Source of the DNA: Promethearchaeota archaeon
GTDB lineage: Archaea; Asgardarchaeota; Lokiarchaeia; Sigyniarchaeales; SOKP01
NCBI GenBank assembly: GCA_016840165.1
Contig: JAEOSU010000051.1
Location: 32,001-96,000 of the forward strand
Direction of reading: 5' to 3'
DNA length: 64,000 nucleotides
Numbering within the stretch: the stretch's first letter is position 1; each line of letters begins with the position of its first letter. Below are positions 48,545-52,798 of the stretch, piece by piece. The translations under genes were made by a program, and so were the position numbers. The notes below the pieces were generated by a model. It was not told the origin of the DNA, ran no database searches, and saw only the letters and a program-made list of their open reading frames with translations.

Positions 48545-49390
48545 TTATTTCAATAGAAATAATCTTAAAAGAAATTTAAACAAATTCAGTTCATTTAGAA
48601 GAGCCATATTTGAAATTATATAATCAAAAATATTCTCCTCTATGAAGTAAATCAGACTTTTTTGATGCCCCTCTTCTATTTTAATAAGTTCTACAATTCT
48701 TCTGATTAAATTAATGATTTGCTTCTCTACTACCAGCATATCGCAATTGGTAGGGTCAATATTAATTATATTAATGCCTGTGCTTGGATCAAATGAAAAT
48801 TTACTTAGTTCTGGATGATCTCTTACATAATTATGGCTTAGATAGTTTTCAAACATACTTTCGATACGTAGATACATTCTCTGTTTTTTATCTTGACTCA
48901 TATGAGCCTCTATTAGATTGATTAATAAATTTAAAATCTGTTGAAACACACCTAATATATCATAAAACTCTGCAATTGTAGTGATATTTTCAGCAGTTAA
49001 CCATTGAGAGTAATACTCTTCAATTATATTTTTAAATGGATTAAAATGATCGGTATTACCCTTCCATAGTGTTTTCCATGCTTCTTTATCACTCGCATAT
49101 TCTGCAATAAATGTTTGTTTGATAATATTTAACCTTGCTCTCAGAATATTTGAACTCACTGTTTTTTCGGAAGCAGCTACAAATAATAATTTTAACTCTT
49201 TATCTTCTAAATATACCCAACGCAACCCGCCCATGTCAATGCTTTCAATTCCCTCTTGAAACTCAAAGACAGTAAATTGATTTAACGCTGCTAATAAACC
49301 GCTTACTAAATCCTCATCTAAAAGTAAGGATAGATAAGACTTATATAATAATGTTATTCCACTCTCAGAGTCCAAGATCCAAATATTCAT
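48545..49390 (-). CDS. Longin-like N-terminal domain protein
   Basis: NIWILDSESGITLLYKSY…DEDLVSGLLAALNQF…IESIDMGG…LLFVA, a longin-type pattern, followed by a helical C-domain. Confidence 0.65.
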   Translation of the reverse strand: MNIWILDSESGITLLYKSYLSLLLDEDLVSGLLAALNQFTVFEFQEGIESIDMGGLRWVYLEDKELKLLFVAASEKTVSSNILRARLNIIKQTFIAEYASDKEAWKTLWKGNTDHFNPFKNIIEEYYSQWLTAENITTIAEFYDILGVFQQILNLLINLIEAHMSQDKKQRMYLRIESMFENYLSHNYVRDHPELSKFSFDPSTGINIINIDPTNCDMLVVEKQIINLIRRIVELIKIEEGHQKSLIYFIEENIFDYIISNMALLNELNLFKFLLRLFLLK

Positions 49391-49964: not shown

Positions 49965-50182
49965 AATTTCCTTCTCTCAATTATTAATATATTATTTTAA
50001 TACAATGAAAAAAGTCTAATTTAGTTTTCTTTCTTGAGAATGTTTTCTAGATTTAGCCTCAGACTTCCTAGATTTTTTCATTTTCATAGACGGTGATTCA
50101 TAATTTATTTTTTCATCATAGGCTAATAAGTAATCTAATATTCTCTATTATAGAATCTTTTTTTTTATTAAATTCGAATCTA

Positions 50183-50389
50183 TTAACTCCTGATTAATTT
50201 AGACTTCTCTATTTCATGTTCAGTATGGCAGTTAGGACAAATCCATACTTTATCATTCTTTTTTACGGAATTAAGACAATTGGCGCATATTGTTATGTCA
50301 CAAATACAATATACACAATTTTCTATGTCCTTATTACAGTCTTTATTACAAATATAGCAAAATGGGGGATTTTTTGGCATTCTTCTCAA
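50183..50389 (-). CDS. Small C4C4 RING-like zinc finger protein
   Basis: CYIC…CIC…ICANC…ICPNC. Confidence 0.7.
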   Translation of the reverse strand: MRRMPKNPPFCYICNKDCNKDIENCVYCICDITICANCLNSVKKNDKVWICPNCHTEHEIEKSKLIRS

Positions 50390-50489
50390 TTATCAAATTC
50401 CACTCTTATAATATTCAATATTATACTTTTAATTTTAAAAATTATTTCATTTAACATAAGTTAATAATAATACGAATGAGTCAATTATT

Positions 50490-50684
50490 ATGTATAATTT
50501 TCAATCAAGAATGCGTTTGTTAAGCTTGATTAGCATTTTATTCATCTATTTTGCAATTTCAAGATTAATTTCATCAGATTTACAAGGTTTTTATATTTGG
50601 TTGATAGTGACGATTGTATACTTAACATCATTAGTAATCTTCTATGTTACATATAAAAAAACCCAAAAGAATACAGTGTCATAA
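50490..50684 (+). CDS. Small two-TM membrane protein
   Basis: Two hydrophobic segments and a basic tail. Confidence 0.6.
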   Translation: MYNFQSRMRLLSLISILFIYFAISRLISSDLQGFYIWLIVTIVYLTSLVIFYVTYKKTQKNTVS

Positions 50685-50695
50685 ATATAATGCTT

Positions 50696-50962
50696 TTATT
50701 TCTTTCTCTTTAAGAATTCAGGAATCACTCCTTCCAAGCCTAAGCTTTTAATAAGTGTGTCTCTGATATCCATTTGAATTTTCATATCTTGCATTATTTT
50801 TAGCGTGTTTTCTAAGGTAATAGAAAAGTTCTGACTCATTTCTTTAATCGTATCAGAAGTTAACTTTAATGATTCCCTGATTGCAATATTGGTCTCATGC
50901 AATTCCTGACTCATTTTTTCCATCGCTTTTCTCATTTCAGCAAGTTCGTCTTTAATCCCCAT
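50696..50962 (-). CDS. Small coiled-coil protein
   Basis: Heptad pattern over most of its length. Confidence 0.65.
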   Translation of the reverse strand: MGIKDELAEMRKAMEKMSQELHETNIAIRESLKLTSDTIKEMSQNFSITLENTLKIMQDMKIQMDIRDTLIKSLGLEGVIPEFLKRKK

Positions 50963-51120
50963 TTGAAATCATTTAGAAAATTAGTTGTATTTAACTACTA
51001 TATGCTTAATTGTACATTAAGAATTTAATTCTTATAGTTTTTTCTAATTAAGCGGAAATATATTTTAATTATTATTTATAAAAGTAATAGATTAAAGCTT
51101 TCAAATATATATGAGAAACA

Positions 51121-51258
51121 ATGTCAGAATGGAAAAAAAGGCTTTCAACCAGCGAAACTAAGGATAATTTTTCTTGTACAGGATGAGCTATGGTTGATGG
51201 ACTCATAAAATGCATCAGAGATCTAAAAAATAAACGCCAAGAAAAGAAGAACAAATAA
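51121..51258 (+). CDS. Candidate 45-aa selenoprotein (CxxU): MSEWKKRLSTSETKDNFSCTG[U]AMVDGLIKCIRDLKNKRQEKKNK
   Basis: In-frame TGA at 51184-51186, three codons after TGT; the frame stays open to TAA at 51256-51258; TTTATAAA box about 40 nt upstream. Confidence 0.45.
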
Positions 51259-51424
51259 TTTAAAAATTTCTCAAGTGTTAAGTCGAAAAATAGTAGGACT
51301 TAATTCTAATGTTTTGCCCAAACAAGAGAAAAATGATGAGTTTTATCACTACTTTTTATTTTCTTTTTATATCAAGCAACAAGATAAATGTTTGATTACA
51401 ATATTAAATAAATTCTTTCATTAA

Positions 51425-52798
51425 CTATGGCCTTTTTGAGCCTTCTCCTACCTTTCTATATATAAATCCATGGCTCTCTACAACCTTTTTATCAAATATA
51501 TTTCGACCATCAATAATAATCGGCGTTCTCACCTTCTTCTTTAAATCATCTAAATTGATATCATAATATTGTTTGTGGTTGGTAGTAAACATCAAAACAT
51601 CTGCATCCTTGACCGCTTTTTCAAAATCATCTGTTAATTCCGTTGCATAATAATCTCGGACTTTTACATAAGGATCATGAGCAATATAGACAATATTATG
51701 AGAATGATATCTACTTCTAAGTGTTTTAATTACATTTTCGGTGGGTGTATTACGAGTATCATCTGTATCTGCCTTGTATGATACTCCAAGAAATACTATC
51801 TTAATATTATCTACTAATTTATGTTTTTCTCGAAATATATCTTCCATTAATTGTACCATATGCTTAGGCATGTAATCATTTAATTCTCGGGATTTTAATA
51901 GAATATCCGTCTTATATTTATTATCAGTATAATTTCGATGGCCATATACCAGTAAAAAGGGATCTTTGGTTAAACAATGGCCCCCAACACCTGAACCAGG
52001 AAAATGCATCATTCTATCATGTCTGTAATTAATGAGTTTGATAATTTCAAATATATCCCTATTAAAATCTTCACAGACTAATGCCATCTCATTTGCAAAC
52101 GCGATGTTTACATCTCGATAGGTGTTTTCTATACATTTTGTTAGTTCAGCAGTTAGAGTATCAGTTACATGCAAATCCTTCTTAACCACTCTTCCATAAA
52201 GATATTTCGCTTTCTCATTTGCCTCTTTGCAACCACCCCCGATTACACGAGGGAAATTGACAATATAGTCTAATAATTTACCTGGCATAACACGCTCGAA
52301 CGAAAACACTAAATAAAAGTCTTTACCTCTTACCAAGCCACTTTCTTTCTCAATAATAGGTTGAACAATGTTTTCTGTAGTACCCGGGGCGACAGTTGAT
52401 TCAATAATGATGGTGGCTCCCTTTTTAATATGTTTTGCGATTTTTCCAGATACTTCCTTTATAGATTCATAACGCGGAATTTTAGAGTCTAAATCTACAG
52501 GAGTTTGTACATCGATAAGAATATAGTCTGCTTTTGCTACATCATCATAGTCATCAGTAACATGGAATTTTCCATTTTTTACTACTTTTGCGATTAATTC
52601 ATCCAATCCGGGTTCTTCTCCTTCGAAAGGATTTTTTCCTGCGTTAAGCCAATCAATTTTCCATCCAGATCGTAATGATCTTCGTTGTATGCCCGTCACA
52701 TAGAAATTTTCTACATCTGCAAGTACAACAGCCATTGGTATACCTACATAGCCCATTCCTATGACACATATCTGAACTTTCTCACTCATAATCTCCAT
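51425..52798 (-). CDS. Nucleotide-sugar dehydrogenase (UDP-GlcNAc/UDP-ManNAc dehydrogenase family)
   Basis: GMGYVG, VQTP, ESTVAPGTT, ENTYRDVNIAFANE, GVGGHC, YKADTDDTRNTP, DGRN. Confidence 0.93.
   Translation of the reverse strand: MEIMSEKVQICVIGMGYVGIPMAVVLADVENFYVTGIQRRSLRSGWKIDWLNAGKNPFEGEEPGLDELIAKVVKNGKFHVTDDYDDVAKADYILIDVQTPVDLDSKIPRYESIKEVSGKIAKHIKKGATIIIESTVAPGTTENIVQPIIEKESGLVRGKDFYLVFSFERVMPGKLLDYIVNFPRVIGGGCKEANEKAKYLYGRVVKKDLHVTDTLTAELTKCIENTYRDVNIAFANEMALVCEDFNRDIFEIIKLINYRHDRMMHFPGSGVGGHCLTKDPFLLVYGHRNYTDNKYKTDILLKSRELNDYMPKHMVQLMEDIFREKHKLVDNIKIVFLGVSYKADTDDTRNTPTENVIKTLRSRYHSHNIVYIAHDPYVKVRDYYATELTDDFEKAVKDADVLMFTTNHKQYYDINLDDLKKKVRTPIIIDGRNIFDKKVVESHGFIYRKVGEGSKRP

Follow-up and report, generated by a model that had tools for sequence, protein, structure and literature searches.

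A candidate selenocysteine-containing micro-protein family of Lokiarchaeia and the three-way-junction RNA element that follows its genes

Positions 51121-51258 of the stretch of DNA analysed here (64,000 nucleotides, referred to below as the window; contig C30:32001-96000 of a 3.6 Mb assembly with 31.6% G+C) are best understood, with a probability of about 0.84, as the gene of a 45-residue selenoprotein, in which UGA codon 22 would be recoded as selenocysteine (Sec) under the direction of an RNA element lying downstream. A small selenoprotein had been proposed at this place in a preliminary description made from the letters of the sequence, and the proposal now finds support in the invariance of the TGA among relatives, in coding constraint on both of its sides, in covariation within the downstream element and in the Sec machinery encoded by the genome.

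The micro-ORF and its relatives

When the sequence was read again, the read-through frame held as it had first been described. It starts at ATG 51121 on the plus strand, arrives at TGA (codon 22) after Cys19-Thr-Gly, and continues for 23 further sense codons to a TAA at 51256-51258, giving 45 codons in addition to the stop. The locus contains the following features.

51121-51258, plus strand: micro-ORF with an MSEWK start, an acidic stretch, the Cys19-Thr-Gly-Sec22 motif (Sec22 putative), an amphipathic helix and a Lys/Arg-rich tail
51175-51186, plus strand: Cys-Thr-Gly-Sec motif (TGT ACA GGA TGA), with Cys19-Thr-Gly at 51175-51183 and the proposed Sec codon UGA at 51184-51186
51075-51083, plus strand: TATA-like box TTTATAAAA, possible promoter of the micro-ORF as judged from sequence, 39-46 nt 5' of the ATG
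51341-51368, plus strand: oligo-T tracts 3' of the RNA element, read from sequence as the likely end of the transcript, of archaeal type

The box TTTATAAAA, which had been reported about 40 nt before the ATG, is indeed there; as a candidate promoter it may serve the micro-ORF, and it stands in an AT-rich region, in a spacer common to the divergent 88-aa gene. This spacer, which holds the micro-ORF, is 462 nt long and is flanked by two minus-strand genes (50696-50962 and 51425-52798), of which the divergent one is the 88-aa gene and the convergent one belongs to the UDP-glucose/GDP-mannose dehydrogenase family. Pfam contains no family for the micro-ORF or for its divergent 88-aa neighbour. The gene order, consisting of longin-like, RING-like, micro-ORF, UDP-sugar dehydrogenase and rhomboid genes, is kept on a metagenome contig (L083) from a sulfate-methane transition zone sample. 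As the flanking genes run divergent or convergent to the micro-ORF, no functional link is drawn from its neighbours.

Elsewhere on the minus strand of the window, 48545-49390 encodes a 281-aa protein with a faint longin domain match and 50183-50389 a 68-aa all-Cys RING-like protein with a weak zf-RING_4 match (E 0.002), both in the order kept on L083. At 50051-50128, on the same strand, many sub-threshold matches to C/D-box snoRNA families were obtained (best 32.6 bits, E ~0.001), and this segment, which lies in the spacer that follows the 49470-49964 gene, may encode an archaeal C/D sRNA.

Relatives of the micro-ORF were obtained in two ways. A six-frame search with the read-through peptide recovered full-length relatives with the same TGA in 21 of the 24 sampled genomes of the genus, each significant match having exactly one in-frame TGA, in the same column. 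A profile made from orthologs located the micro-ORF in 104 of the 134 genomes of a single Promethearchaeota/Lokiarchaeia family, covering 10 genera, and a 400-genome sample of the phylum yielded nothing convincing outside this family. A lack of homologs had been named beforehand as an observation that would speak against the proposal; more than 100 relatives are now at hand.

In an ortholog set of 22 sequences (44-54 codons), extracted from the relatives and aligned by codon, the MSEWK start, the Cys, the TGA, an Asp four residues further on and the Lys/Arg-rich tail are present in all members, the TGA being fixed in 22/22. Other parts of the initial picture are less general. The CxxU motif is found in this ORF and in most orthologs, and the spacing from Cys to Sec is CxxxxU in a few; the further Cys noted in the helix, C31, is present here and varies among the relatives.

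The TGA column itself has been followed well beyond the genus. An interchange of TGA and TGY at codon 22 had been expected, and none is seen among the relatives; profile searches of the family genomes, of the 400-genome phylum sample and of a collection of 5.8 billion proteins gave no form with Cys at this column. The protein collection contains 23 matching proteins (P0001-P0023), and 23/23 have Trp at the Sec column. One of them was checked at the DNA level and translates only with TGA read as Trp, and the Trp copies represent these TGA genes themselves, translated with code 4 by gene calling on short contigs of low GC. Because the TGA is invariant and no homolog carries Cys, it can be explained neither as a sequencing error nor as a recent nonsense mutation, both of which had been considered in the preliminary description. 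The micro-protein family appears to be Sec-only.

Conservation does not end at the TGA, as it might have done, but continues past it in the same frame and with synonymous codon use. Among the orthologs, pN/pS in frame is 0.42 before the TGA and 0.48 after it, against 0.8-1.2 in shifted frames; in the C half, shifted frames give 1.16-1.22 as compared with 0.48 in frame. In the 22-ortholog alignment, entropy is highest at the third codon position in both halves of the ORF. The conserved Gly, Ile, Asp and Gly that come after the TGA are each written with two to four synonymous codons, and the length differences in 42 inspected orthologs are all in frame. An ATG two codons past the TGA had raised the possibility of two separate peptides, and this caveat falls away because Met is not kept at that codon, which is Ile in 16 of 22 relatives. 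Moreover, TGA closes 232 of the 1496 long open frames of this genome; it is therefore an ordinary stop here, and the code is not reassigned.

The RNA element downstream of the stop codon

Beginning 9 nt past the stop codon and about 80 nt past the UGA, the transcript can form a compact structure of three helices, composed as follows.

51268-51330, plus strand: three-helix (three-way-junction) SECIS-like element of 63 nt, with an outer helix around two hairpins
51268-51272, plus strand: 5' arm of the outer helix (UUCUC), pairing with GAGAA at 51326-51330
51326-51330, plus strand: 3' arm of the outer helix (GAGAA), from the 58-copy alignment
51275-51306, plus strand: hairpin 1, with stem 51275-51284/51297-51306 and a 12-nt loop at 51285-51296 made of G and AAAAA...UAG
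51310-51324, plus strand: hairpin 2, with a 5-bp stem 51310-51314/51320-51324 and a 5-nt loop containing an invariant G

A hairpin at 51277-51304 had been noticed before, and it does exist with an A-rich loop of 12 nt; what had not been recognized is that it forms only the central arm of the larger 51268-51330 element. Across copies of the element, hairpin 1 has a stem of 9-10 bp and a loop of 11-12 nt with leading A's and a terminal UAG, and it is flanked by variable linkers of 3-5 nt (58 copies). Compensatory changes are present in 9/9 pairs of hairpin 1 and 5/5 pairs of hairpin 2 in the 58 copies, in which the UCUC/GAGA of the outer helix is invariant and its closing pair covaries as A-U, U-A, C-G or U-G. 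Both hairpins also emerged from RNAalifold, where 12 of 14 pairs had compensatory changes. When pairing was scored in 22 copies, 94% of cells were paired and 13 of 19 pairs were compensatory; none of 500 shuffles equalled or exceeded the observed value, and slid controls gave 28-56%. The corresponding figures for 58 copies, whose alignment was fitted to the model and is thereby biased somewhat toward the modelled structure, are 96.5% of cells paired, 15 of 19 pairs compensatory, 0 of 500 shuffles at or above the observed value and 27-63% in slid controls.

The element accompanies the micro-ORF. A covariance model built from element copies (R1) has its sole significant match in this genome at 51266-51333 (70.4 bits), and it matches directly 3' of the ORF in 47/47 inspected orthologous loci. 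In the family, 107 of 134 genomes are matched, with one or two matches per genome and a single exception with five; the element matches that were compared by coordinate with ORF matches also lie beside micro-ORFs. From genus to genus, the element is spread nearly as the ORF is, and in this genus both are missing together from four genomes. In eight orthologs the ORF extends into the element, its TAA lying inside the 5' arm of hairpin 1, and the conserved "NLxD" tails of these eight are accounted for by the ending of their ORFs within the element.

In many relatives there is also a second, unrelated-looking micro-ORF of about 46 codons, which has an acidic N-terminus, Cys-x4-TGA, and an aromatic and basic helix.

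L017:1848-1985, plus strand: second micro-ORF, with equivalents in L016, L040 and L014, and also in L065-L067 and L073

Several genomes of this genus provide the second micro-ORF with a separate copy of the element, some 370 nt downstream of it. Two other genera have the second micro-ORF directly after the first, with a single element placed 3' of the second, an arrangement like that of the SECIS shared by HdrA-VhuD pairs, of which this genome has four. A tblastn search found the second micro-ORF to be absent from this genome.

Canonical lokiSECIS elements are available in the same genome for comparison, and a pattern scan found seven of them. Six are located 0-25 nt past a stop codon: four follow HdrA-VhuD pairs, one a Prx-like gene and one a membrane micro-ORF of 61 codons. 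For the seventh (on C19) the nearest candidate ORF end is about 1.1 kb upstream. A covariance model made from six canonical copies of this genome (R2) recovers those copies at 52-64 bits. Scanning with such a Lokiarchaeal SECIS model had been suggested as a check, and it turned out negative: R2 gave no match to the element at 51266-51333 at E<=10. Similarly, a Rfam scan of 50000-52500 at E<=10 placed neither SECIS nor any other family on the element, and inspection by eye of other junction registers found no tandem G·A pairs or kink-turn. The lack of a clean AUGA/GA core, entered as a caveat in the preliminary description, is thus real, and it is a conserved trait of the element in all 58 copies. 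By the AUGA/GA core that defines it, the lokiSECIS class does not include this element.

Selenocysteine machinery and other candidate genes of the genome

Lokiarchaeia had been taken from the outset to encode Sec, and this genome possesses the machinery, including tRNA-Sec, SepSecS, EFSec, a PSTK-like gene and Sec-SelD. SepSecS scores 476 bits (C63:14952-16253, minus strand), and EFSec/SelB scores 246 bits, just above the cut-off (C63:21812-22699, plus strand). The PSTK-like gene is below its curated cut-off. SelD has an in-frame TGA (Sec-SelD) and a type II AUGA SECIS. The intron-bearing gene for tRNA-Sec adjoins SepSecS at about C63:16334-16482 (minus strand). It specifies the anticodon UCA, has an acceptor stem of 9 bp and encodes the CCA end, and two insertions of about 30 nt each are found in it, one in the D-arm and the other in the region of the T-loop.

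This tRNA gene was found solely by blastn with a relative's copy that had been validated by Rfam. The Rfam tRNA-Sec search of the genome returned only His and Arg tRNAs, ARAGORN reported 13 tRNAs in the whole assembly with tRNA-Sec not among them, and two hand-written tRNA-Sec scans of the genome gave no match; these searches missed the gene because the two insertions interrupt it. The finding of only 13 tRNAs by ARAGORN suggests that many tRNA genes in this assembly bear introns. SepSecS occurs in 130 of 135 family genomes; genomes with the micro-ORF are thus all Sec-competent, and for this reason its co-occurrence with the micro-ORF is uninformative.

Several other genes of this genome may be of the same kind. 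At C82:26158-26340 (minus strand; L113:259-441, minus strand) there is a 61-codon ORF with one predicted membrane helix and an in-frame TGA in the context Gly-Thr-Gly-U-Gly-Cys, and a canonical AUGA lokiSECIS follows 18 nt past its stop (C82:26104-26145, minus strand). A single-sequence search found this ORF in no relative. A weak TGA-bearing paralog in the same genome, at C37:3273-3419 (minus strand), is located just upstream of a match to the canonical model (C37:3204-3245). Further matches to the canonical lokiSECIS model, at 28-38 bits, were obtained at C19:32036-32077 (minus strand), C30:143842-143894 (plus strand, outside the window) and C103:13705-13746 (plus strand), and the genes upstream of these sub-maximal matches may be additional selenoprotein genes. 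In addition, two TGAs stand in frame at a distance of three codons (Trp-U-Lys-His-U) in the Prx-like gene at C9:67068-67586 (plus strand), upstream of a canonical lokiSECIS, and from their spacing in the sequence these would make a UxxU centre.

Interpretation and comparison with known systems

We infer that Sec is the residue inserted at UGA22 and that the three-way junction is the signal directing its insertion. In the mechanism proposed, the ribosome would read UGA codon 22 as Sec and go on for 23 codons to the UAA, the recoding being directed by the junction RNA 9 nt past the stop. The main arm of this RNA would have retained the apical part of lokiSECIS, while the AUGA/GA kink-turn core would have been swapped for the UCUC/GAGA helix and the small hairpin. 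It is on balance probable that the three-way junction functions as a SECIS without requiring a kink-turn and serves Sec-only micro-proteins.

Other readings of the locus have been weighed. If the UGA were read through with a standard residue by a near-cognate or suppressor tRNA, the structure would be a generic stimulator of read-through, and this would suit an element without the defining SECIS core as well as a family without a Cys homolog to show the need for a Sec-like residue. Such read-through is nevertheless improbable, given that the loop and stem of the hairpin copy specifically the apical part of lokiSECIS, that the UGA stands in the Cys-x-x-U context typical of Sec, and that the Sec machinery is present in essentially all family genomes; furthermore, a TGA that is invariant in >100 genomes would be hard to explain if a sense codon were more efficient.

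It is more improbable still that the UGA is a true stop, which would leave a peptide of 21 residues and make the conserved downstream part a separate small peptide or a non-coding RNA. Standard annotation would call the ORF in this manner, and in this genome an ATG does stand two codons after the TGA, but that ATG is not kept in relatives, and the downstream half, which lies outside the structured RNA in this genome, shows purifying selection specific to the frame of the upstream half, with indels in frame. Least credible of all is that the locus in its entirety is a regulatory RNA without coding function, or a terminator region, with an incidental ORF. Protein signatures oppose it, namely the start with MSEWK, invariance of the Cys and the Asp, the variation at third positions and a pN/pS of <0.5 only in frame, even though the spacer is AT-rich and intergenic and contains oligo-T tracts and an RNA of marked structure.

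For the selenoprotein reading, the predicted protein offers some indication of function. It comprises an acidic N-terminal third, CxxU where a long amphipathic helix begins, and a polybasic tail, and AF2 places helices at residues 3-13 and 17-44 with a pLDDT of 70 overall and 81-87 over residues 21-40. Redox motifs of the CxxC/CxxU type occur at helix N-termini, and the predicted model makes a Cys-x-x-Sec redox centre at the helix start likely. The product would be a small redox-active selenopeptide, whose Cys19-Sec22 pair may cycle through a selenenylsulfide and whose polybasic tail may hold it on an acidic partner, for example a membrane surface or nucleic acid. This combination of a selenenylsulfide-forming redox peptide with an anchoring tail is put forward by analogy and tentatively, at somewhat less than even odds.

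The existence of a family-wide Sec-only micro-protein would mean that the Asgard selenoprotein lists built on homology are incomplete for small genes. Gene callers truncate such genes or use the wrong code for them, a systematic artefact that hides selenoprotein genes, and a Sec-only family of this kind, if true, would be invisible to homology-based surveys of selenoproteomes. The proposed signal, which keeps the eukaryote-like apical loop of lokiSECIS and drops the AUGA/GA core, amounts to a natural experiment on the parts that the Asgard machinery reads. To our knowledge, SBP2 has not been found in the Asgard Sec machinery. Should the proposal be true, these close relatives of eukaryotes would rely for Sec insertion on the A-rich apical loop and the stem rather than on AUGA/GA, and the origin of the eukaryotic SECIS/SBP2 system would have to be seen differently.

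Among known selenoproteins, the micro-protein resembles the eukaryotic Rdx group (SelW, SelH and SelT) in having Cys-x-x-Sec at a helix start, and SelH pairs its CTSU with a basic nucleic-acid-binding segment. The Rdx group, in contrast, has a thioredoxin-like beta-alpha-beta fold of at least 85 residues, whereas the micro-protein has 45 residues and two predicted helices; no homology to Rdx/SelW-like CxxU oxidoreductases was detected, and the prediction shows no thioredoxin-like fold. Asgard selenoproteomes are described as comprising seven families, all recognized through homology to known selenoproteins (PMC11227280; 2026 review PMC13188914), and the micro-protein is outside all seven. A description of these micro-ORFs or of a junction-type SECIS was not found in the literature.

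With the SECIS of Euryarchaeota (Methanococcales), the element would share the character of an archaeal hairpin signal in the 3'-UTR; that SECIS, however, is distinguished by a GAA_A bulge and GC-rich stems, while the element has neither, is AT-rich and differs in architecture. The likeness to lokiSECIS is closer. Four features define the lokiSECIS, in order the AUGA, a stem of 9 bp, a loop of 11 nt that opens with some five A's and closes with (A)G, and the GA (Mariotti 2016, PMC4989117). Hairpin 1 shares with it, and with the seven copies in the genome, the 9-bp stem, the 11-nt loop, the leading A's and the terminal AG, the loop in this genome's own hairpin 1 being of 12 nt, with one G before AAAAA...UAG, instead of 11 nt. 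As with lokiSECIS, the element comes just 3' of the gene's stop codon, and in tandem pairs it comes after the second stop. Different from lokiSECIS are the lack of AUGA 5' of the stem and of GA (or AA) 3' of it, and the presence of the UCUC/GAGA closing helix and of an extra hairpin on the 3' side, which convert the structure into a three-way junction. An element that behaves in so lokiSECIS-like a way probably descends from a lokiSECIS.

The selenoprotein genes described in Lokiarchaeia with a type I lokiSECIS or eSECIS-like element are VhuU, HdrA-VhuD and PrxL (Mariotti 2016, PMC4989117; Huang 2024, PMC11227280). The micro-ORF is like these genes in its in-frame UGA, in a putative 3'-UTR signal that follows the stop by a few nt and in the sharing of that signal by tandem genes, and, as far as sequences can tell, it represents a new protein family with a recoding signal of known type in a new form.
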